Below are positions 6,763 through 24,188 of a DNA stretch of 64,000 bases, piece after piece. The notes beneath the pieces were generated by a model. It saw only the letters and a list, made by a program, of their open reading frames with translations, was not told where the DNA came from and searched no databases. Positions within the stretch are counted from its first letter, which is position 1. Each line of letters starts with the position of its first letter. Source of the DNA: an uncultured Aliarcobacter sp. (lineage in GTDB: Bacteria; Campylobacterota; Campylobacteria; Campylobacterales; Arcobacteraceae); the NCBI GenBank assembly GCA_963664305.2, contig CAXXLV010000002.1:1536001-1600000 (forward strand), given 5' to 3'. The position numbers were made by a program, and so were the translations under genes.

Positions 6763-6816
6763 ATCTTACACCACATTTATAGCATAAATTTAGCGTAAGT
6801 ATAGCATGAGTATAGC
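6763..6816 (-). promoter_or_regulatory. ALDH promoter: four GCTA repeats (11-bp period) plus -10 TAAGAT
   Basis: TAGC on + strand at 6780, 6791, 6802, 6813; ATCTTA at 6763-6768. Confidence 0.75.
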
Positions 6817-6907
6817 AATGTAGTTTTTTGTTACAAATTACGATAAATTCGGCGTTTTTATCAATTTTTTTTCTTTGAAAATTTCAAAATATGTGTTACA
6901 ATTTTTT

Positions 6908-8815
6908 ATGAAAACTTTTACATATACAATAAATAATAAACCTTTAGAAAAGATAATTGATTTTTCAATGTTTGAAAACGAAAAAAATATTTTAATTCAA
7001 ATTTTTTGTGGTGAAACAAAAGAAAAATTAGAAAACATATTAGATGTTATTACAAAAAGATTAGCTCATGCTGTTTGTATAGGTTCTTCTACAGATGGAG
7101 AAATAAGTAATGATACTATTACAACAAATCAAACTATCATATCTATTTCTACTTTTGAAACAACAACAATTAAATATGCATATGTTGAAGAAGAAGACTC
7201 TTTTTCAAATGGTGTGGAACTTGCTACAAAACTTTGTACAGATACAACAAAAGCTATTATTGCTTTTAGTGATGGAGCTACTACAAATGGAGAAGAATTT
7301 TTAAATGGTATCAATTTTGTAAATAACAAAGTAATTGTAAGTGGTGGTATGGCTGCTGATAATGCAAACTTTACTCAGACATTTATCTCTTGTCAAAATA
7401 AAATATTAACAAAAGGTGCTGTTGGTATTTCTTTAAATTCTGAAGATTTAAAAGTATGTAATGCTTTTAATTTTAATTGGTCTCCAATAGGAATAGAGCA
7501 TGTTATTGAAGAAGTTGTTGGAAATAGAGTTTACAAAATCTCTGGCCTTACACCTTTAGATTTTTATGAAAAATATTTAGGAGAATATGTTGCTCGGTCA
7601 CTTCCAGCAACAGGAATAGAATTTCCTTTAATTGTACAAAAAAATAGAATTCCAATTGCAAGAGCTGTTATAGCAAAACATGAAGATGGAAGTTTGAGTT
7701 TTGCAGGGAATCTTCATAAAGGAGATGTTGTAAGACTTGGTTTTGGAAATGTTGAATTAATTCTAAGTAATCCTCTAAAATCTTTATTAGATAAATGTGC
7801 AATGAATGAAACTCAAAGTATTTTTATCTATACATGTATGGCAAGACGTAGATATATGCCAAGTTTAATTGATATAGAAATAAAACCTTTTTCAAAAATA
7901 GCACCAACTGTTGGTTTTTTTACTTATGGAGAGTTTTTTCATAATAAAGAGAATAATGAACTATTAAATCAAACACTAACGGTATTAGCTTTAACAGAAA
8001 AAACAAATTCAAATTTGGATTTGAAAGTTGAAATAAATAGTAATCAAGACAAACTTAGTGAGCATGCAAGAAGTCTGCAAGCTTTAACAAATCTAATTCA
8101 ACAATCTTCACGTGATTATAATGAACAATCAGAAAAATTAGAAAAAGGAAATAAATATGCACAAAATCTAATAGAATCTCAAAAACAGTTTTTAAAACAC
8201 GCAGTTCATGAAACAAATACTCCCTTATCAGTTATCATGGGAAATATTGAGATGTTTGAAATGGAAAATGGAAAAAACAAATACCTTTCAAATATTGAAG
8301 TTGCAATGAAAAATATCTTTAGTATTTATGATGATTTGAGTTATTTAATCAAAAAAGACCAAGTAAATTCTGCAATTCATAAAATAAATATAGTTGATTT
8401 TGTTAGAAGTAGAATTGATTTTTTTACATCTTCTGCTTTGAAATTTAAATCAAATTTTAAATTTCAATCATTAAAAGATGAAATAATTATGAATTTCAAT
8501 GAAATAAAACTTCAAAGAATAGTTGATAATAATCTTACAAATGCAATTAAATACACTCTTCCAAATGAAACAATATTTGTAAGGCTTTCTGAATTTAACT
8601 CTGAATGTCACTTTACAATTGAGAGTCGTTCAAAACAGATTTTAGACCCACAACAAATTTTTGAAGAATATTATAGAGAAGAGCTTTCAGAAGAAGGTTT
8701 TGGACTTGGACTAAATTTAGTAAAAAGAATTTGCAGTGAAGAAAATGTAGGAATTAGATTAGAATCTGGTGAAAACTTTGCTTCATTTACATATATTTTT
8801 AAAGGAGTACTATGA
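6908..8815 (+). CDS. Cytoplasmic FIST-domain sensor histidine kinase
   Basis: FIST N/C motifs (IGSSTDGEI, GGMAAD, CMARR, GFFTYGEF); H-box HETNTPL; GFGLGL; no TM segment seen; ATG at 6908 preferred over TTG 6875. Confidence 0.85.
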   Translation: MKTFTYTINNKPLEKIIDFSMFENEKNILIQIFCGETKEKLENILDVITKRLAHAVCIGSSTDGEISNDTITTNQTIISISTFETTTIKYAYVEEEDSFSNGVELATKLCTDTTKAIIAFSDGATTNGEEFLNGINFVNNKVIVSGGMAADNANFTQTFISCQNKILTKGAVGISLNSEDLKVCNAFNFNWSPIGIEHVIEEVVGNRVYKISGLTPLDFYEKYLGEYVARSLPATGIEFPLIVQKNRIPIARAVIAKHEDGSLSFAGNLHKGDVVRLGFGNVELILSNPLKSLLDKCAMNETQSIFIYTCMARRRYMPSLIDIEIKPFSKIAPTVGFFTYGEFFHNKENNELLNQTLTVLALTEKTNSNLDLKVEINSNQDKLSEHARSLQALTNLIQQSSRDYNEQSEKLEKGNKYAQNLIESQKQFLKHAVHETNTPLSVIMGNIEMFEMENGKNKYLSNIEVAMKNIFSIYDDLSYLIKKDQVNSAIHKINIVDFVRSRIDFFTSSALKFKSNFKFQSLKDEIIMNFNEIKLQRIVDNNLTNAIKYTLPNETIFVRLSEFNSECHFTIESRSKQILDPQQIFEEYYREELSEEGFGLGLNLVKRICSEENVGIRLESGENFASFTYIFKGVL

Positions 8816-9471
8816 AAATTTTATTAGTAGAAGATGATGAAATGTTAAATGAAATGATTACTGAATATATAAATTCAACTGGTCATGTAATAATAAGTAC
8901 AAAAACAGGTCAAGAATCTTTAGAAATCTTAGACTCCCAAAAATTTGATTTATTGATTTTAGATATTTCACTTCCAGATATAGATGGTTTTACGATTTTA
9001 GAAAAATTGCATGAACAAAAAAGAATGGTTCCAACTATTTATATTTCTGCATTAATTGATATAGAAGATATATCTAGAGCTTTTGATTTAGGTTGTTTTG
9101 ATTATCTAAAAAAACCTTTTCATCTAAAAGAACTGACTCTAAGAATAAATAAAATTCTAAAAACAAGATTGGTTCCTCAAAGACATAAAAGACTTTCAAA
9201 ACATTATAGTTTTGATGCAGAAACTATGACTTTATATTTTAATAATGAACCACATATTCTTCCAAGACGACAACTTCAAATTATTGAACTTTTAGCACAA
9301 AATAGAAGTTTAGTTGTAAACTATGATATGTTTAGAACTTATGTTTGGAATGATGATTATATAGATAATGCAACTATTAGAGCAGAAGTAAATAGAGTAA
9401 AAACTGTATTAAGAGAAGATTTTATTAAAAATATAAGAGGAAGCGGTTATATGGTTGAAAGACCTGATTAA
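8812..9471 (+). CDS. OmpR/PhoB-family response regulator
   Basis: Receiver (VEDD, LDISLP, KPF) plus winged helix ending IRGSGY; ATGA overlap with the kinase. Confidence 0.9.
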   Translation: MKILLVEDDEMLNEMITEYINSTGHVIISTKTGQESLEILDSQKFDLLILDISLPDIDGFTILEKLHEQKRMVPTIYISALIDIEDISRAFDLGCFDYLKKPFHLKELTLRINKILKTRLVPQRHKRLSKHYSFDAETMTLYFNNEPHILPRRQLQIIELLAQNRSLVVNYDMFRTYVWNDDYIDNATIRAEVNRVKTVLREDFIKNIRGSGYMVERPD

Positions 9472-9487
9472 GGTCTTTCTTTTTATA

Positions 9488-10588
9488 TTAAATAAAAGTC
9501 AAAGAATTTAATCTATTTCTATATATGATTTTATCATCTGCATAAATCATACTATCTTCAATTTTTTTATTTATTATTCCATGGTCTGGTGATTTTATAC
9601 AAACAGGGTCAGTTGCATTCATATCTTTTGTTAATGCAAATGCTTGACATCTGCATCCTCCAAAATCTTTCTCTTTTTCATCACAAGTACGACATGGTTC
9701 TTTCATCCATTTATCACCTCTAAAATAGTTAAAGGCTTCAGATTCATACCAAATATGTTCTACTGAACTCTCTTTTACATTTGGAAAAGTTAAAGGTAAA
9801 GTATTTGCTGTATTACAAGGAAGTGCTAAACCATCTGGATTAATAGTTAAAAATGTTGTTCCCCATCCATTCATACAAGCTTTTGGTCTTGTTGCAAAAT
9901 AATCAGGAACAACAAAAAATACTTTCATATCTGTTCTTTGTGTTCTATAATAATTTGTAACTTTTCTTGCTTCACTAATTTGTTCTTGAGATGGTAAAAG
10001 TGCATTTATATTTTTTAAAGCCCACCCATAATATTGGATATTTGCGATTTCTAAATAATTTGCACCTAATTTTTCAGCAAACTCTATGATATCTCCAACT
10101 TGATGAATATTTTGTCGAGTAATACAAGTATTAATAATAAGTTGAAGACCTGCATCTTTTACCTCTTTTGCAAATGCAATTTTTTCATCATAAGAGTTTT
10201 TATTGTTTGTTATTAAAGTCATAGTATTTTTATCATGTGATTGAATACCAAGTTGAACTGTTTTAAGTCCTGCTTCTTTTAATTTTGGAACAATTCCTTT
10301 TGGAGCACCAACTCCTGAAGTTATAAGATTTGTATAAAATTTTAAATCATTTGCTTTTTTTACAATCTCTAAAACATCTTTATTTAATAAAGGCTCTCCT
10401 CCACTAATTCCAAGTTGAACAGCACCTAATTCTCTTGCTTGTTCCATCACTCTAAACCAATCTTCTTTGCTCATAGCGTCTTTTGTTTTTGCAAAATCAA
10501 GTTGGTTATAACAATATGCACACTCTAAAGGACATTTATGAGTTAATTCTAAAAGAATCCATAATGGTGGTTTTATTTCATTGTTCAT
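9488..10588 (-). CDS. pqqE: PQQ biosynthesis radical SAM enzyme
   Basis: ELTHKCPLECAYCYN; SPASM motifs KACMNGWG and CRTC...GGCRCQA. Confidence 0.95.
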   Translation of the reverse strand: MNNEIKPPLWILLELTHKCPLECAYCYNQLDFAKTKDAMSKEDWFRVMEQARELGAVQLGISGGEPLLNKDVLEIVKKANDLKFYTNLITSGVGAPKGIVPKLKEAGLKTVQLGIQSHDKNTMTLITNNKNSYDEKIAFAKEVKDAGLQLIINTCITRQNIHQVGDIIEFAEKLGANYLEIANIQYYGWALKNINALLPSQEQISEARKVTNYYRTQRTDMKVFFVVPDYFATRPKACMNGWGTTFLTINPDGLALPCNTANTLPLTFPNVKESSVEHIWYESEAFNYFRGDKWMKEPCRTCDEKEKDFGGCRCQAFALTKDMNATDPVCIKSPDHGIINKKIEDSMIYADDKIIYRNRLNSLTFI

Positions 10589-10838
10589 ATTTAATCCAGT
10601 TTCTATTTTTTGCTTCTGCTAAAAAAGCATTTATATCTTGTGTTAAATCTTCCATTTCAAATTTTTCACATAAAATTTTATTTATATCTTTTACGCTGTT
10701 TTTTCCGTCACAAAGATTTAGAATTTCTCCTGCACTTTGATTTAATTGAACCATACCTTCTGGGTATAAAAGTACATAACAGTTTTGTTTTTCTTCCCAT
10801 TGAAATTGAAAATTCGGATTTACACTTATATTTTTCAT
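10578..10838 (-). CDS. pqqD: PQQ precursor peptide chaperone
   Basis: VLLYPEGMVQLNQSAGEIL..CDG motif; operon position. Confidence 0.93.
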   Translation of the reverse strand: MKNISVNPNFQFQWEEKQNCYVLLYPEGMVQLNQSAGEILNLCDGKNSVKDINKILCEKFEMEDLTQDINAFLAEAKNRNWIKYEQ

Positions 10839-10839
10839 T

Positions 10840-11550
10840 TTATCTTTCCACGTTAAAGTAAGGAGGTCTTTTTAATTCATAAGCTAAATATAAAGCATCA
10901 CAAATTGTCCATAAAATATCTAGTTTAAATTGTAAAATTGTAAAAGCTTTTTCTTGTAATTCTCTTGTATTAAACTCTTCAAGAGTAATTGCAAGTCCAT
11001 GTTGAACATCTCGTCTAGCTTCACTTAATCTTTTTTGGAAATATCTTAAACCCTTTTGTTCAATCCAAGGATAATTATCTGGCCAAGTATTTAATCTTTG
11101 TTGATGAATTTGTGGAGCAAACATCTCAGTTAAAGATGACATTGCAGCCTCTTTCCAAGGTCTTTGACGTGCAAAATTAACATAAGCATCAACTGCAAAT
11201 TTAACGCTAGGTAATAAAAATTTATGATTTATTAAATCCTCTTTTTTAAGTCCAACTGCTTCACCTAGTTCCAACCAAGCCTCTATTCCACCACCAACAC
11301 TATCATGGTCATTAATTCTATCTATCCATTTTCTTCTATCAACTAAACTATCACAGTTTGACATAATTGCAGCATCTTTAATAGGAATCATACATTGATA
11401 ATAAAATCTATTTGCAACCCAACCTTGAATCTCCTCTTTTGTACACTTACCTTCATACATTCTTATATGAAAAGGATGATGAATATGGTACATTTTTCCC
11501 ATATCTCTTAGTTTTGTTTCAAATTCTTCTTTACTAAAAACTTCTTGCAT
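10840..11550 (-). CDS. pqqC: Pyrroloquinoline-quinone synthase
   Basis: [26 protein letters not shown]. Confidence 0.95.
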
Positions 11551-11560
11551 TTTCTCTCCT

Positions 11561-12475
11561 TTAAATTTCTATACTCATACCATCATAAGATACTTCAATA
11601 CCATGGGATATAAGTTCTTTATACTCAGGGCTCTCTTCATCTAAGATAGGATTTGTATTATTTATATGAATTAATATCTTTCTTGGTTTTGTTAAGGTAT
11701 CTAATAAATCAATCAATCCACCCTTATCTCTTAGGGGTAAATGTCCCATATCAGTTCCAAGTTTTGAAGAAAATCCATTTTTTATCATCTCATCATTTGT
11801 CCAAACTGTTCCATCTACAAGTAAAATATCAGCTTGACTCATCTCTTCAATTATATGTTTTTCTAAAACACCAAGTCCTGGAAGATAAAACAATCTTTTC
11901 CCTGTTTTTTTATTTAAAACAACAACTCCAATATTATCACCAACTCTTGGTCTATCTCTATATTTTGAATATGGAGGTGCATTTGAAATTAGTGGAACGG
12001 CATAAAACTCACAATTTGGCATAACTGGTATAAAAAATGGTTGTTTATTAAAAGCTATTTCATTATAAACAACTCCTCCACCATCCCAGTGTTGAAGCAT
12101 TTTAAATAAAGGAAAAGAAGTATTTAACTCTTCATGAACTTCTTTTGTACAATAAACTTGATGAGGGCATCCTTCCCTTAACATCAAAAGTCCAGTTGTA
12201 TGGTCGATTTGAGCATCAATAAAAATAATAGCTTTTATTTTTGTTTCACGTCTTTGTTGTGGATGTAAAAATGGTGAATTATGAATTTGTTCTAAAATAT
12301 CAGGACTTGTATTAAATAAAACCCAATTCTCACCGTCTTCACTAATTGTAATAGAACTTTGTGTTCTTCTTTTTATAGATTTTTTTCCTTCTCTATAACC
12401 TTTACAATTATCGCAATTACAATTAAATTGAGGAAGTCCACCACCAGCAGATGAACCTAAAACTTCTATTCTCAT
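11561..12475 (-). CDS. pqqB: PQQ biosynthesis protein (MBL fold)
   Basis: [36 protein letters not shown]. Confidence 0.95.
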
Positions 12476-12530
12476 AACCTACCTTTATTTTCATAACTAA
12501 ATCTACAAAATTATAGATTTGGATATAAAA

Positions 12531-12558
12531 ATACAAGCTAGAAATTTCTAGCTTGTAT
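12531..12558 (-). terminator. Perfect 28-bp palindrome between pqqA and pqqB (stability or attenuation hairpin)
   Basis: ATACAAGCTAGAAATTTCTAGCTTGTAT. Confidence 0.7.
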
Positions 12559-12603
12559 CCAAGAACAAAATTTAATTTACAAACAGGATTTTTAATTTAT
12601 TTA

Positions 12604-12678
12604 TTATTCATGACAAATATACATTGTCACTTCAAAACCAAATCTATTGTCAACAAACATAGGTTTTTCCCATTTCAT
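12604..12678 (-). CDS. pqqA: PQQ precursor peptide, 24 aa (MKWEKPMFVDNRFGFEVTMYICHE); not in ORF track
   Basis: Translated by hand; RFGFEVTMY with E-x3-Y core; SD GGAGG upstream; lies just before pqqB. Confidence 0.95.
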   Translation of the reverse strand: MKWEKPMFVDNRFGFEVTMYICHE

Positions 12679-12704
12679 TTTTATTCCCTCCTTTATAAGA
12701 TTTT

Positions 12705-14495
12705 TTATTTGTGTAATTTAAACACGTGAACAGAGCCACCTTGGTTGATGTTTTTAACTGCTTTTGCAACTTCACCACCCCATAAAGGAACAGCTCCACC
12801 CCAACCAGAAACAACAGCTACATATTGCTCACCATTTTGTTCCCAAGTAATTGGAGAACCAACGATTCCTGAACCTACGTTAAATGAGTATAAAACTTTT
12901 CCATTTTGGTCATCTAAAGCTAATAATTTACCTTCAGGAGTTCCAGTAAATACTAAACCACCAGCTGTACTTAACACTCCTCCCCATAATGGAGCTTTAT
13001 TTTTGTAAACCCATTTAATTTGTCCAGTTACAGGATCAACCGCTTTTAAAGCACCAATGTGGTCTTCAAAAATTGGTTTAATTGTAAACCCTGCTCCTAA
13101 ATATGCTGCACCTTTTTTGTACGATACTGGTTGATTCCAAATATCCATTCCCCACTCATTTGTTGGAACATAGAATAATCCAGTGTTTTGAGAATATGAA
13201 ATTGGCATCCAGTTTTTAGCACCTAAGAATGAAGGAACTGTAAATACTGATGTTCCTTTTCCACCATCAACTGCTGCACCTGGTCTATTATCTTCATTTA
13301 CAATTGGTCTTCCATTTTCATCAATTCCTTTTGCCCAAGTAATATTCTCAGCAAAAGCAACTGATCTAATATATTTACCAGTTGTTCTATCTAAAACGTA
13401 GAAGAATCCATTTTTGTCAGCTGTTGCTCCAGCTTGAACTTTTTTACCATCTTTATCTTTGTAATCAAATGGAATAAACTCTGACATACCATCAAAATCC
13501 CATCCATCATGTGGAGTTGTTTGGAAATGCCATACAATTTTTCCAGTATCTGGATTAACTGCAACTCTTGAAGCAGAATATAAGTTATCCCCTTTTCTTA
13601 AGTGTGAATTCCATGGTGCTGGATTTCCAGTTGGAACGAAAATTAAATCTGTATCAGGGTCATATGTAACACCATTCCAAGGAGCAGCTCCACCTGATTG
13701 CCACATGTCACCTTCCCAAGTAGCGTTTAATGTACCACTAATTCCATTTTCTTTACCATTTAAGTATCCCATATGACCTTCAACCATTGGTCTCATCCAT
13801 ATAAGTTCACCAGTTTTTGGATCTCTAGCTTCTACTTTACCAACAACACCAAACTCACCACCTGAAATACCTGTGATAACTTTGTCTTTTACAATTAGTG
13901 GAGCAGCAGTTATAGAATAACCATCTTTATATTCAGAAACTTTTTTCTTCCAAACAACTTTTCCAGTTTTTCTGTCAAGTGCAACTAATTTTGCATCTAA
14001 AGTTCCAAAAATAATTAGATTATCATAAATAGCAGCACCTCTATTTATAACGTCACAACATGGTAAAATTGCATCTGGTAAGTTTGCATCATATTGCCAA
14101 ATTTCTTCACCCGTTGCTATATCAATAGCAAAAACTCTTGAATAAGAAGCTGTAACATACATTACACCATCTTTAACGATTGGTTGAGATTCTTGACCTC
14201 TTTGTTTTTCACCACCAAAACTAAAGTTCCAAACAGGAACTAAATCTTTAACACTATCTTTATTAATTTGTGTTAAAGATGAAAATCTTTGTCCTTGTTG
14301 TCCTAACCCATAAGTTAAAACATCATTTGTTGTTTTTGCATCATTTGCAATTTCTTTGTAAGTAACTGCATTATATGATGGTTCTGTAACATTAGTTGTG
14401 CTATTATTAGTAGCGTTGTTTGAAGCAACACAACCACTAATTAGTGCAGATAGTGTAACGGCAACTGCACTAGTTAGCAATTTATTTTTAATCAT
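12705..14495 (-). CDS. pedH: PQQ-dependent alcohol dehydrogenase, PedH/ExaF-like (lanthanide-type), predicted lipoprotein
   Basis: Vicinal CC (LPCCDV), [31 protein letters not shown]; lipobox LISG-C22. Confidence 0.85.
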
Positions 14496-14544: not shown

Positions 14545-14576
14545 AGTATACATAACAAATATAGCCTAAGTTTAGC
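14545..14576 (-). promoter_or_regulatory. ADH-pqq operon promoter: two GCTA repeats plus -10 TATACT
   Basis: TAGC at 14562 and 14573; AGTATA at 14545-14550. Confidence 0.75.
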
Positions 14577-15354
14577 TATGGTTTATTTTTTTAGATTTAA
14601 ATCCAACAAACGCCATAAATAGGCTAATTACCAATGAAATTAGTAAGATAAAAAACACCTCAAAATCATATTTTCCATAAAGTGAAAAACGAATAGCCTC
14701 TACTATATAAGTAAAAGGATTAGATGATGAGATATTAAACAATAAAATAGACGAATCTTTTATCTTCCAAAGAGGATATAAAGCACTACTTAAAAAGAAC
14801 ATTGGGAAAATTACAAAGTTCATAACTGTTGCAAAATTCTCTAACTGTTTTATTACAGAAGAGATAAATAAAGCAAAAGCATTTAAGATTATTGATGAAA
14901 TTATGATTATTGGAACTGTTAGAAAAATATCTAAAACCGATAGTTCAACCCCATACCATTTAGCAATAAATAAAAAAGTTAAAGCTTGAAGAGTTGATAC
15001 GATTGCAGTTGCAAACATCTTACAAAAAAGTAGATAATTTCTATTTATATATGATGTTAAAAGTATTTTCATACTTCCCATCTCTCTATCAAAAATCATA
15101 GTTAAACTACTTTGCATTCCATTAAAAAGTAAAACCATTCCAACAAGCCCTGGAACTATATATGTTTCATAAGTAATATATGTTTCATAAGGTGGAATAA
15201 TTGCCAATCCAAGTGCTGTTTTAAATCCAACTGAAAAAATAAATAACCATAAAAGTGGTCTAACAAGTGCAGAAAAAAATCTACTTTTTTGTTTTAAAAA
15301 TCGTATTAACTCTTTATATACAATTCCATTCATGCAATAGATATATTTTTTCAT
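14572..15354 (-). CDS. ABC-2 permease of PQQ-ADH systems (PedC-like)
   Basis: LVRPLLWL, PPYETYITYETYIVPGL, DREMGSM, FFLSSALYPLWK. Confidence 0.85.
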   Translation of the reverse strand: MKKYIYCMNGIVYKELIRFLKQKSRFFSALVRPLLWLFIFSVGFKTALGLAIIPPYETYITYETYIVPGLVGMVLLFNGMQSSLTMIFDREMGSMKILLTSYINRNYLLFCKMFATAIVSTLQALTFLFIAKWYGVELSVLDIFLTVPIIIISSIILNAFALFISSVIKQLENFATVMNFVIFPMFFLSSALYPLWKIKDSSILLFNISSSNPFTYIVEAIRFSLYGKYDFEVFFILLISLVISLFMAFVGFKSKKINHS

Positions 15355-15358
15355 TTTT

Positions 15359-16078
15359 TCATCCTACAATTTGCTTGAATGTATCAACCAAATTCTCTTT
15401 TTCATATTTTTTAACAATATTTTTTACAATTCCAGTTTCTATTATTTCACCATTTTTTATTATTGAAATATTGTCATTTTCTTTTACCTCATCAAAAAGA
15501 TGTGTAATCCATAAAACAGAAATTTGTTTCTCTTCTACTAATTTTCTTACATAATCCAAAATATCAAATCTACTTTTTAAATCCAAACCAACAGTTGCTT
15601 CATCTAATAATAAAAGTTTTGGTTTATTTATCAATGCTCTTAAAATCTCTACTCGTCTTCTGTGTCCACCATTTAGTTTTCGCACTTGTGTATCCATAAC
15701 ATCTAAAAGTTCAAGTTTTTCTATTTCATCTTTTATTGAAAGAAGTGTCTCTTTAAAATTTAAACCTTTTAAAGAGCCATAGTAATAAAGATTTTGTTTT
15801 ACAGTTAAATCTAAATCCAAAGTTGGTTCTTGAAAAACAATCCCAATATCTTTTAAAGCATTTGAATAATCTTTTATTGAGTAGTTATTTATGAAGATTT
15901 CTCCAATTTGAAGAGATTGAAGTCTTGTAATCAAAGAAAAAATTGTAGATTTTCCTGCACCATTAAGTCCTAATAAAACAGAAAAAGCTCCCTCTTTTAT
16001 GGAAAAAGAGACATTATTTAATACTCTCTTTTTTCCATAATAAAAATCTATATCATTTAGTTCTAAAATATTTTTCAT
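15359..16078 (-). CDS. ABC transporter ATP-binding protein (PedB-like)
   Basis: GLNGAGKST, LNGGHRRRVE, LLLDEAT. Confidence 0.9.
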   Translation of the reverse strand: MKNILELNDIDFYYGKKRVLNNVSFSIKEGAFSVLLGLNGAGKSTIFSLITRLQSLQIGEIFINNYSIKDYSNALKDIGIVFQEPTLDLDLTVKQNLYYYGSLKGLNFKETLLSIKDEIEKLELLDVMDTQVRKLNGGHRRRVEILRALINKPKLLLLDEATVGLDLKSRFDILDYVRKLVEEKQISVLWITHLFDEVKENDNISIIKNGEIIETGIVKNIVKKYEKENLVDTFKQIVG

Positions 16079-16079
16079 T

Positions 16080-17039
16080 TTATTTATTTGGAATAACAGC
16101 TAATCCCCAAGGATATCTTCCTACAGGAATTGTTTTTTCAACTTTTAATGACTCAACATCAATTATTGAAACATCACCACTTACACCATTTGTTGTATAA
16201 AGTTTTTTCTCTCCATCTACAAAATGTAACTGCCAAACTCTTTTTCCTACAAGTAAATATTTAATTACTTTATATGTTTTTGCATCAATTACAGCAACAT
16301 GATTTGCAGGTCCTAAAGCAACAAAAGCATATTTTCCATCACTTGTAAGTTTAATTCCAACTGGTTGAATTAAATCTTTAAAAATTCCAGGAATTTTAAA
16401 TCCAATTTTTGCAACAGATGTTTTAGTTTTTGCATCAACTACCATAACTGTTCCACCAATTTCACTTGAAGCCCAAACCATACTTCCATCATGTGAAAAC
16501 TCAATATGTCTTGGTCTTTGATCAACCAATGTGTTATGAATAATCTTTTTTGTTTTTGTATCAATCCAGTGTAAAAAATTTGAAGTTTCTGTTGTATTAA
16601 TAGCAACACTTCCATCAGGACTTACAGCCATACCTTCTGGTTCAACACCTACATCGATTTGAGCTAATACAGATTTGTTTTGTGTATCAACAACAGTTAC
16701 AATTGCATCATCTTCATTTGAAATATATAACTCTTTTCCATCAGGAGTTAAAGCAAATTGTTCAGGGTCTTCACCTGAAGGTAAATCATATAAAATCTCA
16801 TTTGTTTTTGTATCCATTACTTGAACTGTATCATCATCACTTGCACAAATATAAAGTTTGCTATAGTCATTACTTAATAAAATTCCTCTTGGTCTTTGAC
16901 CTACTTTTACAGTTTTTACAACTTTATTTGTATCTGAATCTATTATGCTTAAAGTATTATCTTTTTCATTTGAAACATAAACTGTATCAGCCATAAGCAT
17001 ACTTGTTAAAATTGATATTGATAAAAAAGTCTTTTTCAT
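16080..17039 (-). CDS. YVTN beta-propeller protein of PQQ catabolism clusters (PedA2-like)
   Basis: Signal peptide; repeated YVSNE/VGxxP blades; SD GGAG before ATG 17039. Confidence 0.85.
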   Translation of the reverse strand: MKKTFLSISILTSMLMADTVYVSNEKDNTLSIIDSDTNKVVKTVKVGQRPRGILLSNDYSKLYICASDDDTVQVMDTKTNEILYDLPSGEDPEQFALTPDGKELYISNEDDAIVTVVDTQNKSVLAQIDVGVEPEGMAVSPDGSVAINTTETSNFLHWIDTKTKKIIHNTLVDQRPRHIEFSHDGSMVWASSEIGGTVMVVDAKTKTSVAKIGFKIPGIFKDLIQPVGIKLTSDGKYAFVALGPANHVAVIDAKTYKVIKYLLVGKRVWQLHFVDGEKKLYTTNGVSGDVSIIDVESLKVEKTIPVGRYPWGLAVIPNK

Positions 17040-17068
17040 ATTTTTATTCTCCATTTATTTTATGATGA

Positions 17069-17144
17069 ATTTTATATCATCTTTATAGCCTAAGTTTAGC
17101 GATTGTTTTATTGCTAAACTAAAGCTATAAATATCCATTATAAT
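17069..17144. promoter_or_regulatory. Divergent promoter pair, each with two GCTA repeats plus -10
   Basis: Minus: TAGC 17086/17097, -10 TAAAAT 17069-17074. Plus: GCTA 17113/17124, -10 TATAAT 17139-17144. Confidence 0.8.
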
Positions 17145-17167
17145 CAATGAACTAAAAAGGAGAAAAA

Positions 17168-18319
17168 ATGAAAATAATTTTATTTTTACTACTGCTATTA
17201 AATTTTATTTATGCAGATATCTTAAATACAAAAATTTTATATTTAGAACAAAAAATTGAAAAACCACCTGTTTTATCAAATATCATAGAAGAACCTGATG
17301 ATTTAGGTTTAAAAGGTGCCCAAATTGCTGTAATTGATAGTAATAAAAGTGCTAAATTTTTAAATCAAAACTTTGAACTTGAAACAAAAATATCTTATGA
17401 TGAAAATGAGTTAATAACTGCTTTTGAAGATTTTATAAAAGCAAATAACAGTTATGTGATTTTAAATGTTGAAACAACTCTTTTTGAAAAAATCGTTAAA
17501 AATCCACTTTCAAAAAATGCTTTATTAATAAACGCAAGCAATGAAAGCACACAAATTAGAAAAAATTATTGTGTTAAAAATCTAATCCACACAAGTGCAA
17601 GTAACGCAATGCTTTATGATGGATTAGTTCAATTTTTAGTAAAAAGAAATTTTAAAAATATTCTTTTAATAAGTGGAAAAAATCCAAAAGATATAGAAAT
17701 AGCAGATGATATAAAAAGAGCTGTTAAAAAATTTGGAGCAAAAATCGTTGCTGAAAAAACTTGGGAGAACAATAGTGATATCAGAAGAAAAGCTTCTGAT
17801 GAAATTCCTGTATTTACACAAGCAAAAGATTATGATGTAGTTTTAGTAGCAGATTATTATGGAGATTTTGGAGAGTTAATCTATTTTAACTCTTGGCTTC
17901 CAAGACCAGTTGCAGGAACTCAAGGATTAACTCCTGTTTTATGGCATAAAGTTATCGAAGCTTGGGGAGCTGCTCAAATGCAAAGTAGATTTGAAAAGTT
18001 CTCTTCAAGATGGATGCAATCGCGTGATTATTCAAATTGGCTTGCAGTTAGAACAATCATCACATCTATAGCAAAAACAAATACAAATGATTTAAAAACC
18101 AATCTTGATTTTATTTACTCTGATGAGTTTGATGTTGGTGCATATATGGGAAGAAAACTCTCTTTTAGAGATTATAATGGACAAGTTAGAATTCCTATTT
18201 CACTTGTTCAACCAAGAGCTTTGATTTCAACTTCACCACAAGTTGGTTTCTTACATCCAACAACAGATTTAGATACACTTGGAATTGCACCTTTTGAAAT
18301 GGAATGTAAAAATGAATAA
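17168..18319 (+). CDS. Substrate-binding protein of PQQ-ADH-associated ABC system (PedA1-like)
   Basis: Signal peptide; PRPVAGTQGL, EAWGAAQMQSRF, SFRDYNGQVRIP, LDTLG motifs. Confidence 0.8.
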   Translation: MKIILFLLLLLNFIYADILNTKILYLEQKIEKPPVLSNIIEEPDDLGLKGAQIAVIDSNKSAKFLNQNFELETKISYDENELITAFEDFIKANNSYVILNVETTLFEKIVKNPLSKNALLINASNESTQIRKNYCVKNLIHTSASNAMLYDGLVQFLVKRNFKNILLISGKNPKDIEIADDIKRAVKKFGAKIVAEKTWENNSDIRRKASDEIPVFTQAKDYDVVLVADYYGDFGELIYFNSWLPRPVAGTQGLTPVLWHKVIEAWGAAQMQSRFEKFSSRWMQSRDYSNWLAVRTIITSIAKTNTNDLKTNLDFIYSDEFDVGAYMGRKLSFRDYNGQVRIPISLVQPRALISTSPQVGFLHPTTDLDTLGIAPFEMECKNE

Positions 18320-18773: not shown

Positions 18774-18777
18774 AAAT

Positions 18778-19653
18778 TCAAACTTCTTTTAAGTACTCTA
18801 AAATTTTTAGATTTTTTATCTCAAACTTTGAAAAAGCGAACCATTTTTTCCCTAAATCTTTCAAACTTGCTCCTATATGAAAAACTTCTTTTTTATCGAT
18901 TATTAGAAATCTATCGTGAGAGCTTTTAAACTCATAAAGTTCTATATTTTTGTATTGTTTTTGGTACTTTTCAAAATCTAGTTTTAATGATTTTGAAATA
19001 GTATGAATATAAATTCTGGTTTTTATATTTGGATATTTAGAAAAAAGAGTAAAAACTGTTTCATCTATATAGTTATCGATTAAAGTTATTTCATTTGTTG
19101 CATTTTTTAATAAATCATTTATAAAAACATACGCATCAAAAATCTCTCCATTATAAAATATCCCTTGTTTTGGTTTTAGTTTTTTGTCTTCAAGCGAGTT
19201 TGAGATATTTTCTACTTTTGATTTTAGGATTATTACTTCTTTTTCCAGTTCTTTAAATCTTTGATTAGTAATTTTTTCACCATTAATAGCATAACCATTT
19301 TGAATATAATTTTTTAATATAGAAGTTGCCCATTGTCTAAATTTAACACCTTTTTGCGATTTCACACGATAACCAACAGAGATAATTACATCTAAATTAT
19401 AGTATTCAATATCTCTTCTTACTTCTCTTTCTCCTTCCTTTTGAAGTGTCGCAAATTTTGCGACAGTTGAATATATTTCTAATTCTTTATCTTTGAAAAC
19501 ATTACTAATATGTTTACCAATTGTTTTTATATCTCTACCAAAAAGTTCTGATATTTGGTTTCTATTTAGCCATACAGTTTCATTTTCAACCGAAACATTT
19601 AGTTCTAATTCACCATCATTATAAACTACTATATTTGATTTATTTTCTTCCAT
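18778..19653 (-). CDS. RhuM/virulence-protein family DNA-binding protein
   Basis: ETVWL, YYNLDVIISVGYRVKS, FRQWAT; C-terminal HDRFLIID...GASLKDLGKKWF domain. Confidence 0.8.
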   Translation of the reverse strand: MEENKSNIVVYNDGELELNVSVENETVWLNRNQISELFGRDIKTIGKHISNVFKDKELEIYSTVAKFATLQKEGEREVRRDIEYYNLDVIISVGYRVKSQKGVKFRQWATSILKNYIQNGYAINGEKITNQRFKELEKEVIILKSKVENISNSLEDKKLKPKQGIFYNGEIFDAYVFINDLLKNATNEITLIDNYIDETVFTLFSKYPNIKTRIYIHTISKSLKLDFEKYQKQYKNIELYEFKSSHDRFLIIDKKEVFHIGASLKDLGKKWFAFSKFEIKNLKILEYLKEV

Positions 19654-19761: not shown

Positions 19762-19781
19762 GCCATCTTAAAAAAGATGGC
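19762..19781 (-). terminator. Hairpin after the porin and small ORF
   Basis: GCCATCTT-AAAA-AAGATGGC followed by a T-rich tract on the minus strand. Confidence 0.6.
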
Positions 19782-19788
19782 ATATCTT

Positions 19789-19893
19789 TTAGTGAGTTAA
19801 AATATAATGAATTTGATAGAACATATTGATATAAATACCAATAAGTCCTATCATTCCTATCATACCCGCGCCATGTTCTTTTAGGAGTTTCAT
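19789..19893 (-). CDS. Putative 34-aa hydrophobic small protein (MKLLKEHGAGMIGMIGLIGIYINMFYQIHYILTH)
   Basis: Starts 6 nt after the porin stop and ends just before the hairpin; one hydrophobic segment; weak SD. Confidence 0.45.
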   Translation of the reverse strand: MKLLKEHGAGMIGMIGLIGIYINMFYQIHYILTH

Positions 19894-19899
19894 TTTATT

Positions 19900-21099
19900 T
19901 TAAAATTCGATATTAACTGCACCAACAACAGTATGCATATCTTCTAAACTGTTTTTATCAAAATCACCAAATGCATATCTTAAACCAAGAGTTGCACTTT
20001 TATTTAAAGCATAAGATAAACCTAAATCATATTCGTTGATTTTTAAATCTTCATTTAAACTTGAAAAAGTTGTATCTTTGATTTTATGTTGAGCTATATT
20101 TGACTCTAATGTTAAAGCTTGTGTTAAATCATATTCAAAATTTAAAGCAAAGATAGTTGTATCACCATATTTTCCAACTCTATTAAATGAATCCGTCCCT
20201 AAATCAGCATTTGTAAAATATGTTACAGGTAGATTTTCCCCTGATACATAACCATCTTTTGTATGAACTGCTGCTGCACCAATTTTAAAATCATTGATTT
20301 GTTTAGCAACTTTTAAATATGCTCCAAACATTTTTTCATCAACTTGTCCTGCTGTCGAATTACTTCTATCACCAGTTCTTTTTTCAACTTGTGTTTGTAA
20401 TTCTAATCCAGCAACTTCACCCATTGCAAAGGCATTGAACATATGACTTGTTGCATCATTATAAATTGCAGAATTTGTAGCTGTTTCAGTATTGTTTTGT
20501 AAGTAAACATATCTTCCACCAACAAGTAATTTATCAAGAATAACTTGTCCACCTAAACCATATGCATCAAAATCTCCAGTTCCAGTTCCTGATGAATTAG
20601 CACCTAAGAATGTATTTTGGTCATTATTTTTACCTTCAACTGCTTTAAAATCAAATGCATATAATAAAGTATTTTCAACTGGTGTATAACCTAAAAGAGC
20701 TAAATCAATTTTATCTCCATTAGAACCATAAAAAGGTGTTCCATATGTATCATTTATTCTTCCAGCAATTAGTAATTTATCTTGATTAAATGGAACTGTT
20801 ACATAAGCTTCTTCCCACTCAAAAGTATCGTTTGAGTTATCACCCCAAGCATCATTTTGTAATTTTATAGCTGTGTGAACTTTTATACCTTCAAGTGTAG
20901 TAAAGTCTAAATTTAGATTAACTTCTGAATCAATAATTTGTTTATCTTTTTTAACTGTTGCTGTATCACCTTTTACAGAAATTCCCCTAACTTCTGCATC
21001 ACCAGAGATTTTTAAATCTGATGCTATTTCTATAGTACCTGCCATTAATGAACTTACTACAACTGATGTTGCAAAACTGATTAATCCTAACTTTTTCAA
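19900..21099 (-). CDS. Outer membrane porin (Campylobacterota MOMP-like beta-barrel)
   Basis: Signal peptide, alternating beta-strand pattern, terminal Phe (VNIEF); TTG start with AGGA SD. Confidence 0.75.
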   Translation of the reverse strand: MKKLGLISFATSVVVSSLMAGTIEIASDLKISGDAEVRGISVKGDTATVKKDKQIIDSEVNLNLDFTTLEGIKVHTAIKLQNDAWGDNSNDTFEWEEAYVTVPFNQDKLLIAGRINDTYGTPFYGSNGDKIDLALLGYTPVENTLLYAFDFKAVEGKNNDQNTFLGANSSGTGTGDFDAYGLGGQVILDKLLVGGRYVYLQNNTETATNSAIYNDATSHMFNAFAMGEVAGLELQTQVEKRTGDRSNSTAGQVDEKMFGAYLKVAKQINDFKIGAAAVHTKDGYVSGENLPVTYFTNADLGTDSFNRVGKYGDTTIFALNFEYDLTQALTLESNIAQHKIKDTTFSSLNEDLKINEYDLGLSYALNKSATLGLRYAFGDFDKNSLEDMHTVVGAVNIEF

Positions 21100-21159
21100 A
21101 CTATTTCCTTTATAATTTTTTTTACATAAATTTATATGAAAATAAATTTTGTATTCGTT

Positions 21160-21235
21160 ATTATATCAAGGAGTTATAGCCTCAGAATAGCCCATAAATA
21201 GCCTATCTATAGCGTTTATATAGCTTAATTATAGC
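21160..21235 (-). promoter_or_regulatory. Porin promoter: six GCTA repeats at 11-bp period plus -10 TATAAT
   Basis: TAGC at 21177, 21188, 21199, 21210, 21221, 21232; ATTATA at 21160-21165. Confidence 0.85.
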
Positions 21236-21278
21236 ATTAATAAAAAATTATTTTTTTGTAATTTTAAGTACATTTTTT

Positions 21279-21683
21279 TTATTTGTATTTACCGTATTCC
21301 TTAAAAGTTTTATCTTCAAAAATAACAAAAACTGTTTTAGTTTCTTTATCATTTTCATAAGCTGGAAGAGATAATCCTATAGAATTTTTTACAGGATTTT
21401 TTAAAAAATCATTTATTGCTAGACTTGGAACATTTCCTTCAAATACAAAATCTTTATATATTGAAGTATTACAAGATTGTATCTCTTTTGGTATTCCAAC
21501 ATTTCTTTTTAATGCTTTCATATCAATCATTGATACAACATCCACACTTTCATTTACATCACTCTTGATTTTGTCTAACCAATCTTGGGGACAAGTGCTA
21601 CTAACTGGCTTAAATATTTGAATCTTTTCATCAAATGCAAATAGACTCAAAGCCAAAAACAAAATAAATACTAACTTTTTCAT
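21279..21683 (-). CDS. Exported DUF411-like protein with degenerate metal motifs
   Basis: GIPKEIQSCNT...FEGNVP...GLSLP resembles DUF411 SCHT...EGHVP...GLAVP. Confidence 0.55.
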   Translation of the reverse strand: MKKLVFILFLALSLFAFDEKIQIFKPVSSTCPQDWLDKIKSDVNESVDVVSMIDMKALKRNVGIPKEIQSCNTSIYKDFVFEGNVPSLAINDFLKNPVKNSIGLSLPAYENDKETKTVFVIFEDKTFKEYGKYK

Positions 21684-22381
21684 ATTTCTCCTTCTAATAT
21701 TTTGGGATAAGTTTTAAATAATCTATTTTTTATTTCATCAATTTTTTCCATATCAAACTCTTGATTATTTTCATTTTTATATTCATAGATTATTTTGGCT
21801 GGATTTTTACCAAAAAACAAAATCCTATTTGAAAGATATATCGCTTCACTTAAATCATGAGTAACTAAAATCACACTACTTTTAAACTCTTTGCAAAGAT
21901 TTAAAAAAAATCTTTTTAGATTTAGTGCAGTTGGAAAATCCAAAGATAAAAATGGTTCATCAAGAAGTACGATTTTTGGTTCATTGATAAAAGTTCTAAT
22001 CAAAGCAATTCGTCTTGCCATTCCACCAGAGATTTCATTTGGGTATTTTTCTAAAATATCTTTTTTTAATTCAACAAAAGATAAAAACTTTTCAATCTTT
22101 TTTATATCTTTATTTTTAGAAAATAAAAGCAAATTCTCTTTTATTGTAAGCCAAGGTAATAATAGATTTTCTTGAAACATATATCCGATATTTGAAGATT
22201 TTAAGTTTACATTTCCTATAAACTCTTTATCCAAAGAAGCAACTATTTTTAATAAAGTTGTTTTACCACAACCAGATGGTCCAATAATTGATAAAAATTC
22301 TGAATCTTTTATATTGATTTTTATATCTTCTAAAATTTTGTTTTTTTCATAATATTTTGTTTTGATTTCTATATTTATCAT
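21680..22381 (-). CDS. NitT/TauT-type ABC ATP-binding protein
   Basis: GPSGCGKTT, LLPWLT, ISGGMARR, LLDEPF. Confidence 0.88.
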   Translation of the reverse strand: MINIEIKTKYYEKNKILEDIKINIKDSEFLSIIGPSGCGKTTLLKIVASLDKEFIGNVNLKSSNIGYMFQENLLLPWLTIKENLLLFSKNKDIKKIEKFLSFVELKKDILEKYPNEISGGMARRIALIRTFINEPKIVLLDEPFLSLDFPTALNLKRFFLNLCKEFKSSVILVTHDLSEAIYLSNRILFFGKNPAKIIYEYKNENNQEFDMEKIDEIKNRLFKTYPKILEGEI

Positions 22382-22382
22382 T

Positions 22383-23117
22383 TTAAATCCATCTTCTATA
22401 TTTTTTTTCCATAGGAGTTAAAAACAATCTTTCAAACAAAAATATAATAAAAATAAAACAAAAAGTATAAGCAAATATTGATGTTATATCAAAGTATTGG
22501 AAAAACATAGAGATTTGAAAACCAACTCCATCACTTCTTCCTAAAAGTTCAACAACCAAAACCAATTTCCAAATCAAAGATATAGCAATTCTACTACTTG
22601 AAATCAAAGATGGATACAAATAAGGAATATAGATTTTAAATAGCGTCTCTTTAAAATTTAGGTTATATACTTTTACTAATTGTAAATATTTTTTATCCAA
22701 AGAACTAACTGCCTCTTTTATATTTACAATGATAATTGGAACTTTGTTTATAACAACAGCTAAAATCAAAGAAAAATCAGTTAATCCAAACCAAATATAA
22801 CAAATAACTATTGTTACAAGAGCTGGAATATTTAAAGCAATTAACAAAAAGATAGAAAAAAAGTTTTCAATTTTTGTTGAAATTCCCATCAAAAATCCCA
22901 AAAATATTCCAATAATCATAGTAATAACAAAAGCTAAAACAACTCGATATAAAGTAATACTAATATTTTCAATCAAATCTTTGTTTTTAAAATGTTCAAC
23001 AATAGAATAAAAAATATCAATCAAAGATGGAAAAAGTTCTGAATTTACTAAAAGTGAAATTGCTTGCCAAACAATACAAAAAAGAATTATTGAAAATATT
23101 TTTGTTTCATTAAACAT
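22383..23117 (-). CDS. NitT/TauT-type ABC permease
   Basis: Multiple TM segments; WKLVLVVELLG..DGVG motif. Confidence 0.85.
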   Translation of the reverse strand: MFNETKIFSIILFCIVWQAISLLVNSELFPSLIDIFYSIVEHFKNKDLIENISITLYRVVLAFVITMIIGIFLGFLMGISTKIENFFSIFLLIALNIPALVTIVICYIWFGLTDFSLILAVVINKVPIIIVNIKEAVSSLDKKYLQLVKVYNLNFKETLFKIYIPYLYPSLISSSRIAISLIWKLVLVVELLGRSDGVGFQISMFFQYFDITSIFAYTFCFIFIIFLFERLFLTPMEKKYRRWI

Positions 23118-24074
23118 TTATTGAACCTTATAAAAAATATCTTTTTCTAAAACTCTGCTCTCTTGTGATAAATCATCTTTTCCTTCATTTAATAAAAGTG
23201 AAAATATTTTTTCTATGTCTTTAATATTTTCATTTGTAAAATCTTTTATAATTGATTTTTTATATCCCTCTTTTAATGCTTCAAAATCATTTTCATTATC
23301 AACTTTCATTATATCTTTTAATCTATCCCACTCTTTTTCGCTACTATTTAAAATATCTTTTGCTTCAAAACTAGCCTTTAAAAAAGAGTTTATTAAATCA
23401 TGATTTTCAATTGAAAAATCTTTATAAAATGTCCAACCAACAAAAGGAATATCACTATTTACTCCAAATTCACTAAAAACATTTTCCATTAGAACTAAAG
23501 GTTTCATACCAAATTTTTCTAATTTTGCATTAAAATGCCAATAATTTATACTTGCATTCAAAGACTCATCTTCCATTTTTTTATATAAAATTGGTGCTGT
23601 TGCAAAAACTGGTTTTACTATATTTTTTAAATCTAAATTATATTTTTTCTTTGCATAAGCTCTTAAAATAATCCAAGTTTTATCATCAACTCCACCTGCA
23701 ATTCCCAATTCTTTATCTTTTAAATTTTCAAAAGTTTTTATTTCACTTTTAGGATTTATATAAAGAGTTCCTGTAGCTTTTGAATAAGGATAAAAAACAA
23801 ATTGTTTATTTTTATCTCTTTGTGTATTTACCCAAATCCAATCATTTACAATCATATCTACACTTTTTGATTGAAGTGCGATTAATTGGGCATTTTTTGA
23901 AGCTAATTGAGTAAGTTGTAAGTCAAATCCATACTTTTTATCAAGTTCATAATGTTTAATTACATCTAATTCCCAGTTTACTGTTCCATAATTTAAAACA
24001 CCTATTTTCAAAACATTTTGTGCATACAAATTTGATATTATTAAAGCTACTATAAATAGGACTTTTTTACTCAT
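23118..24074 (-). CDS. NitT/TauT-type ABC substrate-binding protein
   Basis: Signal peptide; GTVNWEL, DWIWV, GIAGGVDDKTW; SD GGGAG before ATG 24074. Confidence 0.8.
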   Translation of the reverse strand: MSKKVLFIVALIISNLYAQNVLKIGVLNYGTVNWELDVIKHYELDKKYGFDLQLTQLASKNAQLIALQSKSVDMIVNDWIWVNTQRDKNKQFVFYPYSKATGTLYINPKSEIKTFENLKDKELGIAGGVDDKTWIILRAYAKKKYNLDLKNIVKPVFATAPILYKKMEDESLNASINYWHFNAKLEKFGMKPLVLMENVFSEFGVNSDIPFVGWTFYKDFSIENHDLINSFLKASFEAKDILNSSEKEWDRLKDIMKVDNENDFEALKEGYKKSIIKDFTNENIKDIEKIFSLLLNEGKDDLSQESRVLEKDIFYKVQ

Positions 24075-24103
24075 AATTACTCCCAATTTTTATTAATTTT
24101 GCA

Positions 24104-24188
24104 ATTGTATATAAATTTTATAGCGTGAATTTAGCAATGAAAAGAATTTTTCCATCGCTATAATTAGGCTATAAAGAGGGTTTATAAT
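24104..24188. promoter_or_regulatory. Second divergent promoter pair with GCTA repeats
   Basis: Minus: TAGC 24121/24132, -10 TACAAT 24104-24109. Plus: GCTA 24157/24168, -10 TATAAT 24183-24188. Confidence 0.8.

Follow-up and report, generated by a model that had tools for sequence, protein, structure and literature searches.

How are the genes for alcohol and aldehyde oxidation switched on in an Arcobacteraceae bacterium, and which protein reads the signals in front of them? We addressed this question in a 64-kb window of the genome of an uncultured Aliarcobacter sp. (assembly GCA_963664305.2, contig CAXXLV010000002.1, positions 1,536,001 to 1,600,000; the window is this whole stretch of 64,000 nucleotides, and positions are counted from its first letter). 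A preliminary description, made from the DNA letters alone, had pointed to direct repeats with a GCTA core in front of seven transcription units of a cluster for alcohol oxidation with pyrroloquinoline quinone (PQQ), and had proposed that they are read by the OmpR-type response regulator encoded at 8812-9471. The comparisons presented here make it likely that the GCTA boxes are the operators of this regulator, which together with a histidine kinase carrying a FIST sensor domain would form a two-component system devoted to the oxidation of alcohols and aldehydes.

The repeats stand out clearly from the background. GCTA-N7-GCTA was found 14 times in the window, compared with a mean of 0.84 in shuffled sequence (the largest count was 5, and none of 100 shuffles reached 14). 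Thirteen of the 14 matches make up seven intergenic arrays of 4, 2, 2, 2, 6, 2 and 2 boxes with an 11-bp period, and their strands, coordinates and copy numbers are exactly those given in the preliminary description. In all seven arrays, which are oriented to the downstream gene, exactly 11 nt separate the proximal GCTA from a TAnnnT hexamer downstream, which in each case has the letters listed before. The 14th match (position 3404, + strand) lies inside a coding region and is without TAnnnT at 11 nt. The distance from the hexamer to the start of the listed open reading frame (ORF) varied from 15 to 68 nt across the seven promoters, so that it is the -10, not the start codon, from which the boxes keep a constant distance.

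Four boxes (6780-6816, - strand) lie at the promoter of the aldehyde dehydrogenase gene, in the intergenic stretch that separates this gene from the kinase/regulator operon, and the -10-like hexamer TAAGAT (6763-6768, -) follows 11 nt past the proximal box. The promoter of the PQQ alcohol dehydrogenase gene has two boxes (14562-14576, -), whose weight-matrix score of 39.0 bits was the highest, followed by TATACT (14545-14550, -); its distal box overlaps the TAG stop codon of the upstream permease gene. Two further promoters are divergent. The one of the beta-propeller/ABC operon (14572-17054) has two boxes at 17086-17100 (-) and TAAAAT at 17069-17074 (-), and the one of the binding-protein gene (17168-18319) has two boxes at 17113-17127 (+) and TATAAT at 17139-17144 (+). 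Six tandem boxes (21177-21235, -) with TATAAT (21160-21165, -) precede the probable porin gene (19900-21099), and six-box arrays are also present in the related loci L001 and L036. The remaining pairs of boxes belong to the second ABC transporter operon (21279-24086; boxes 24121-24135, -; TACAAT 24104-24109, -) and to the operon of cytochrome c550, or PedF (24207-27150; boxes 24157-24171, +; TATAAT 24183-24188, +).

We then considered how specific this arrangement is within the host genome, which is 2.78 Mb long with 27% GC. The bare pair GCTA-N7-GCTA is not enriched genome-wide (38 observed against 31.7 expected); the signal resides in local concentration and spacing. Among all 38 pairs, TAnnnT was found at 11 nt in 12, compared with 1 to 4 at the other recorded spacings from 5 to 17 nt. 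A spacing-constrained scan of the genome, which the preliminary description had named as a check, bore out the concentration of the pattern at the cluster promoters: the composite GCTA-N7-GCTA-N11-TAnnnT has 12 matches, compared with a mean of 0.8 and a maximum of 2 in 10 second-order Markov simulations, and seven of the 12 fall in the 17.4-kb cluster. Genome-wide counts of GCTA-Nx-GCTA peaked at x = 5, 8, 11 and 14 (61, 121, 83 and 80, respectively) because of codon periodicity, and counts of short spaced repeats need coding separated from intergenic DNA. A weight matrix built from 59 sites gave, at a threshold of 14 bits, 11 matches in 2.78 Mb, of which the top eight (28 to 39 bits) are the seven cluster promoters and one site at C1:615212.

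This eighth site (32.7 bits) is on another contig, outside the window. Downstream of it, the listed start of a gene for a 400-residue Pyr_redox_2 flavoprotein follows at a distance of 101 nt (site and gene at L081:7212-8546 = C1:615212-616546), and a gene for an SNF-family symporter comes next. A strict site stands directly upstream of the flavoprotein ortholog in three of five other genomes (G294, G286 and G357, not G382 and G192), and in G286 it is present though the genome has no PQQ dehydrogenase. The regulon thus extends beyond the window to an unlinked flavoprotein gene. As a speculation, the flavoprotein may be the NADH-reoxidising partner of the aldehyde dehydrogenase.

Conservation of the boxes was examined in loci found by a search with the dehydrogenase, which returned 80 loci, 12 from Campylobacterota and 68 proteobacterial. 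Exact box pairs occur at the orthologous promoters in 10 of the 12 Campylobacterota loci, one of them a Sulfurimonadaceae locus with 51% GC. The two others, L032 (Sulfurospirillum) and L033, have CCTA-N7-GCTA-N11-TAnnnT or GCTA-N7-GCTT-N11-TAnnnT before the dehydrogenase gene and the beta-propeller operon, so that boxes and spacing are kept in all 12 loci, in two as a one-mismatch variant. We had to discard L032 and L033 as motif-free negative controls for this reason; their genomes encode the regulator elsewhere, at 71-73% identity. An idea that the recognition helix co-varies with the CCTA or GCTA form of the box was likewise dropped, since these orthologs all have the same helix. Over the window and the 12 loci, TAnnnT stands at exactly 11 nt in 59 of 66 proximal pairs. 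Of the seven exceptions, one is the coding match at 3404 and at least three are arrays broken by a degenerate box or a shifted register. The consensus over loci reads GCTAAAyTcAg GCTATAAAnnT, four variable bases, and TAtAaT. In the proteobacterial loci, any GCTA pair was found in only 4 of 68, and the two cases displayed are without TAnnnT at 11 nt. In L001 (8796-8830) and L037 (20915-20950), overlapping divergent box pairs were seen between second pqqC-like and pqqE-like copies. This suggests a further peptide-maturation operon in the regulon of some species.

These data bear on the reading that the boxes are not protein operators at all and belong to the promoter of an alternative sigma factor, or to a repeated or mobile sequence. 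The boxes are always found beside a -10-like hexamer, and Arcobacter species have several extracytoplasmic function (ECF) sigma factors, according to the part of the A. butzleri sigma-factor paper available to us (PMC3445524), which makes no mention of the present system or motif. An ECF promoter is ruled out by the spacing and the array structure: the gap to the hexamer is 9 nt from the proximal GCTATA and 20 nt from the distal box, neither of which fits a -35/-10 pair, and arrays of four to six units are not sigma elements. As to mobile DNA, conservation between species is limited to the GCTA core and a few positions beside it, with variable bases in between, which is unlike a mobile repeat. 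We regard this reading as scarcely credible.

Does the motif go together with the proposed regulator? The regulator, the motif and the dehydrogenase were searched in the same 401 Campylobacterales genomes. The PQQ dehydrogenase is encoded in 11 of them, and all 11 have the regulator (at least 74% identity) and 5 to 13 strict motif matches. The regulator (at least 69% identity) is found in 19 Arcobacteraceae genomes including that of the window, and the eight of these that have no PQQ dehydrogenase keep regulator, boxes and aldehyde dehydrogenase. In all 19 an aldehyde dehydrogenase gene (recognised in the 18 other genomes by Pfam for 4 loci and by tblastn with 83-95% identity for 14) diverges from the FIST kinase/regulator operon, and between the two lie tandem GCTA boxes, two to five in number and pointing to the aldehyde dehydrogenase gene; four of these arrays include one degenerate GCTT unit. 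The genomes of L001, L003, L032, L033 and L037 encode the regulator at 70-90% identity, and it was found in 16 of 16 checked dehydrogenase genomes (11 plus 5; G404 may be the same as G357, as the regulator coordinates coincide).

The number of sites per genome gave a similar picture. Four or more strict matches, a threshold picked after seeing the data and applied to relatives that are not independent, occur in 29 of the 401 genomes, and every one of these belongs to the set of 50 with a best regulator match at an E-value of 4.1e-85 or lower. None of the 351 genomes outside this close-regulator set reaches four strict matches, and the motif read backwards has almost no matches in the 401 genomes. 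By this distribution, the motif follows the pair of FIST kinase and OmpR-type regulator rather than the PQQ alcohol dehydrogenase. The earlier proposal that the regulator at 8812-9471 controls the seven promoters thus gains support from comparative evidence, namely the 19 of 19 arrays, the 29 of 29 genomes, and a distant genus.

In this distant genus (g36 of family f23), the regulator is 61-63% identical and the FIST kinase is conserved, and the boxes, which read GCTATTTTCATGCTA, keep the 11-nt spacing and are dispersed around the chromosome. In the Sulfurimonadaceae-like genome G023 (loci L084-L091), a box stands before the gene for a molybdenum aldehyde oxidoreductase, the divergent neighbour of the kinase operon. 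Other boxes of this genome precede genes for a tungsten-type aldehyde:ferredoxin oxidoreductase, a ferredoxin, an OprD-family porin and a FIST-domain chemoreceptor, as well as an operon starting with a 4Fe-4S (Fer4) protein and continuing with Proton_antipo_M and NADHdh membrane subunits. One site of G023 is now parted from a chemoreceptor gene by an insertion sequence. We considered whether the FIST chemoreceptor and the FIST kinase of G023 bind the same ligand, and rejected this since the two show no significant similarity (best BLASTP E-value 0.23). In L003, a site was seen before a three-ORF operon that possibly encodes a three-subunit aldehyde oxidoreductase, as read from ORF sizes alone. 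Among 18 more distant loci with a FIST kinase and regulator, a strict site in divergent orientation immediately precedes the kinase in 10, and one (L139) has sites at an aldehyde dehydrogenase gene downstream of the regulator.

Judging from these genomes, the element common to all that bear boxes is the kinase/regulator pair, and the common target function aldehyde oxidation rather than lanthanide or PQQ metabolism. This bears on another explanation, according to which an unlinked transcription factor binds the boxes and the adjacent two-component system serves another role. The regulon does take in unlinked genes. Against such a factor, the genes that bear boxes differ very much between genomes that share only the kinase/regulator pair. 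Direct repeats of 11 bp also fit an OmpR-type protein, and the explanation by an unlinked factor seems highly improbable. At L120:2516 and L129:2449, regulators 56-60% identical are accompanied by non-FIST kinases, and GCTAT-N6-GCTAT-N11-TAnnnT was found just upstream of the kinase gene. Use of this box grammar may extend to a broader clade of regulators in Campylobacterota.

The kinase gene (6875-8815, + strand) encodes FIST_N, FIST_C, HisKA and HATPase_c domains (Pfam) with the H-box present. Since no hydrophobic segment was found (the best 19-residue hydropathy is 0.9), the kinase has no transmembrane segment and would be cytoplasmic. Its residues 36-373 align with the whole of the NosP model NF041558 with 56.9 bits (E 1.8e-15), far under the cut-off of 450, so that the protein is recognised as having FIST_N and FIST_C domains and not as a NosP equivalog. 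A sequence search returned no solved FIST structure, only matches to kinase cores.

The regulator gene (8812-9471, + strand), proposed to encode the box reader, specifies an OmpR/PhoB-family protein of 219 residues, with a receiver domain (PF00072, 92.3 bits, cut-off 30.2) and the winged-helix domain Trans_reg_C (PF00486, 38 bits, cut-off 26.2). It is the sole transcription factor encoded in the cluster, and no LuxR-type output domain was reported in it. Residues E7, D8, D51, S79 and K101 are invariant in 12 orthologs and paralogs. The protein aligns over its full length to DrrD (1kgs, E 2.5e-26) and also to BasR/PmrA, RpaA, PhoP and KdpE. None of the best 25 of 93 named NCBIfam regulator families reached the cut-off; the best was RprY, with 110 against 370 bits, and the PhoB models scored far under theirs (TIGR02154, 87.9 against 296 bits; NF053854, 99.9 against 270). 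The recognition-helix region, IDNATIRAEVNRVK, is identical across the compared orthologs except the most distant one, that of G023 (62% identical), an invariance which matches that of the GCTA core.

The host genome encodes a paralog of the regulator (C2:1394339-1394986), 53% identical, which adjoins a kinase with an sCache_2/dCache_2 sensor (both within L083:2775-5001 = C2:1392775-1395001). This paralog was present in all 16 other same-genus genomes sampled, with or without the alcohol cluster. GCTA-N7-GCTA-N11-TAnnnT occurs immediately after the paralog gene in six of six genomes (G000, G286, G310, G023, G221 and G331; L083:5086 in the host), and precedes genes for a DUF4212 or DUF485 protein and a sodium:solute symporter, with acetyl-CoA synthetase next in G023. 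A further site of 22.1 bits lies upstream of pta-ackA (C2:1409691 = L082:4691), about 15 kb from the paralog. We considered pta-ackA as a member of the FIST regulon and rejected it: the same site is kept in same-genus genomes that have no ortholog of the regulator (G302, G364, G078 and G350), which fits the paralog system, and it is not counted here. Taken by their neighbours, the paralog sites look like a regulon for acetate uptake and activation, kept in genomes without the alcohol cluster. The two systems are thus alike in their regulators, in a related box and in the same 11-nt distance to TAnnnT, and differ in the sensor and in the targets.

As the paralog uses a related box, cross-recognition must be considered. 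In its strongest form, the boxes of the cluster would be read by the paralog, alone or jointly, and the cluster would answer to acetate or another carboxylate and not to its own kinase. The degree of identity, the recognition-helix region of the paralog (IDNPTIRAEISRLK), which is near-identical to IDNATIRAEVNRVK, and its composite sites beside its own gene and at pta-ackA speak for this. Two observations speak against it. All 12 same-genus genomes that carry the paralog and no ortholog of the regulator have 0 to 3 strict matches, none of the cluster type, and the two classes of box share the GCTA core and differ in their flanks, with GCTAWAyTnAg GCTATA in the cluster and GCTAyNwwAwT GCTAyG at the paralog sites. 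Control of the cluster by the paralog is in our judgement distinctly unlikely.

The preferred reading remains that the FIST kinase and the regulator at 8812-9471 act together on the boxes, and a mechanism can be outlined. The FIST domain would sense a signal in the cytoplasm, most probably an aldehyde or else a product formed in alcohol or aldehyde oxidation, and the kinase would phosphorylate Asp51 of the regulator. From the box geometry and the co-occurrence, regulator dimers would then bind head-to-tail on two adjacent 11-bp units. If the hexamer occupies -12 to -7, the two proximal units would cover about -38 to -17, a region in which promoters of Campylobacterota lack a -35 element. Placed in constant phase 11 nt ahead of the -10, the regulator would recruit RNA polymerase in the manner of PhoB at pho boxes, and the extra units (four boxes in all at the aldehyde dehydrogenase promoter, six at the porin promoter) would permit cooperative oligomerisation. 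As for the signal, the location of the FIST kinase in the cytoplasm and the genes in the regulon point to an intracellular compound related to aldehydes, and the weak similarity to NosP leaves room for haem or a gas.

The closest known architecture is the pho box of E. coli, which is bound by PhoB, a member of the same OmpR/PhoB family. There, 11-bp tandem direct repeats take the place of the -35 element and stand at a short, constant distance from the -10, and some promoters have extra upstream units. The same features, at least two 11-bp direct repeats and a fixed distance to the -10, were found at all seven promoters of the window and at 59 of 66 pairs over the 13 loci. The present system differs from that of PhoB in its GCTA-core box, in a soluble FIST kinase instead of the membrane-bound PhoR, in a regulon for alcohol and aldehyde oxidation, and in host promoters without a -35 consensus.

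Several observations weigh against the preferred reading. For the kinase operon itself no box was found, and the autoregulation common in such systems was not seen. Seven of the 18 distant loci (L115, L119, L121, L134, L136, L137 and L031) have no strict site beside the kinase, and 21 of the 50 close-regulator genomes have fewer than four strict matches. Because the paralog has a related site, the core motif is not unique to the regulator at 8812-9471. Boxes, regulator and targets are often inherited as one cluster, so that a part of the co-occurrence is linkage. Finally, the sites overlap the core promoter, and a protein bound at -38 to -17 could also repress.

The last point leads to the possibility that the regulator binds the boxes and acts as a repressor, occluding RNA polymerase at -38 to -17 until a signal releases it. 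At four of the seven promoters the hexamer is consensus-like (TATAAT or TACAAT) and could function without help, and arrays of four to six boxes would suit the coating of a promoter. A repressor would have no need for phasing to a single base, yet the exact 11 nt is found in 59 of 66 sites across families, and the arrays run upstream and never over the -10 or the start. PhoB-type regulators in this position activate. Such phase, kept across families, favours an activator that contacts RNA polymerase, and an exact distance to the -10 combined with a variable distance to the start codon is as expected for it. From this geometry only, we infer that the regulator activates rather than represses, and take repression to be unlikely.

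The identities of the genes behind the boxes, as first proposed, agree with profile searches. The aldehyde dehydrogenase (5190-6695, -) is NAD-dependent and ExaC-like (PF00171, E 1.3e-154), and scored 834 bits with the ExaC model NF050026, just under the cut-off of 900. The PQQ-dependent, PedH-like alcohol dehydrogenase (12705-14495, -; TIGR03075, 782 bits) has its best solved match in 6zcw/6zcv (865 bits, E 2e-259) as compared with 679 bits for 1flg. We take 6zcw/6zcv to be the lanthanide-dependent PedH. An Asp two residues past the catalytic Asp marks lanthanide enzymes, and the protein contains WDFDG. Provided that this identity of 6zcw/6zcv and the Asp marker hold, the enzyme is probably lanthanide-dependent. 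Directly after its gene lies an unlisted ORF with its own ribosome-binding site, pqqA (12604-12678, -), which encodes 24 residues (MKWEKPMFVDNRFGFEVTMYICHE). A GC-rich hairpin with a T run (about 12525-12562) separates pqqA from pqqB, and suggests a single operon with attenuated read-through. The genes pqqB, pqqC, pqqD and pqqE (9488-12475, -) have no box of their own and are probably read through from the dehydrogenase promoter.

Upstream of the dehydrogenase, the operon at 14572-17054 (-) encodes homologs of PedC, PedB and the beta-propeller protein PedA2, and the divergent gene (17168-18319, +) a PedA1-type binding protein (PQQ_ABC_bind), all assigned by NCBIfam profiles. The porin assignment (19900-21099, -) is a lead only, despite a nearly maximal score, and the second ABC transporter operon (21279-24086, -) includes a DUF411 protein by profile search. 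The last operon (24207-27150, +) encodes cytochrome c550 PedF, a binding protein, a SoxYZ-like carrier and a relay metallohydrolase. TIGR03075, TIGR04494, TIGR03861, TIGR03866 and TIGR04558 are all above cut-off, which places the cluster among those of the ped type; TIGR03863 (412.9 against 413.6) and TIGR04557 (138 against 140) fall marginally under. A RhuM-family gene (18778-19653, -) lies between the binding-protein operon and the porin gene; of the 12 related loci, L036 alone has such a gene in this position, and the gene is therefore probably an insertion. Public sequencing runs were also inspected: 19 were found, two recorded as RNA and all as assembled contigs, and four were examined (X1, X2, X3 and X11). 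Three of these are probably DNA, and X11 is a true RNA run; none of the four yielded molecule starts. Its RNA contigs, which come from a relative, gave seven short matches (5218-5452, 11257-11462, four within 12669-14007, and 24215-24484), which have no bearing on the promoters.

How does this system compare with those described for similar genes? The Pseudomonas ped/exa system shares the gene set, with PQQ dehydrogenase, PedF cytochrome c550, PedA1A2BC transporter, porin, ExaC-type aldehyde dehydrogenase and pqq genes, and in both a sensor of the FIST/NosP type is tied to the cluster. According to the portion of a review that was available (PMC12997753), ethanol oxidation in Pseudomonas is governed by the LuxR-type regulators AgmR/ErbR and PedR2/EraR (PedS2-PedR2/EraSR), with hybrid or membrane-bound kinases and a separate NosP-like protein, PP_2663, with PedS1/NahK; the term 'OmpR' does not occur in this review. 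The cluster studied here has, unlike that of Pseudomonas, one OmpR-type regulator and a soluble kinase with a fused FIST domain. With NosP, a haem-based nitric-oxide sensor of the FIST fold, the N-terminal region of the kinase shares an alignment over the whole model; it differs in its score and in the fusion of FIST to a kinase, and the regulon points to an aldehyde-related signal rather than nitric oxide. No description of the system or the motif was found in the literature searched, subscription-only papers and supplements being outside its scope. On the strength of the comparative data, this appears to be a real and new regulon with a mechanism of known kind, that of an OmpR-type two-component system with tandem direct-repeat operators.

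A broader picture can be put forward tentatively. It is possible, though rather doubtful, that a Campylobacterota-specific clade of OmpR-type regulators shares the GCTA-N7-GCTA/11-nt grammar, and that two sister systems, FIST for aldehyde and Cache for acetate, split the route from ethanol to acetyl-CoA. If so, the FIST kinase would switch on the aldehyde and alcohol oxidisers of each lineage, PQQ- and NAD-dependent enzymes in Arcobacteraceae and molybdenum/tungsten oxidoreductases in the Sulfurimonadaceae genus, and the Cache kinase would sense the acetate produced and switch on its uptake and activation. This would provide the first small-molecule ligand class for FIST domains beyond haem and nitric oxide, and a natural example of near-identical recognition helices separating, or deliberately coupling, two regulons.

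Characterised regulators are few in Arcobacteraceae, Sulfurimonadaceae and the families related to them, and the present analysis assigns a motif, a regulon and a probable role to one of their two-component systems. The motif is specific enough, with eight top matches in 2.78 Mb, for the regulon to be annotated from sequence in new genomes. To our knowledge, the ligands of FIST sensor domains are largely unknown, and a soluble kinase, a regulator of 219 residues and promoters with two to six defined boxes offer a clean experimental handle on these domains. In these bacteria, a ped-type and probably lanthanide-dependent cluster for alcohol oxidation would thus be placed under a type of regulator other than the LuxR-type proteins of Pseudomonas.

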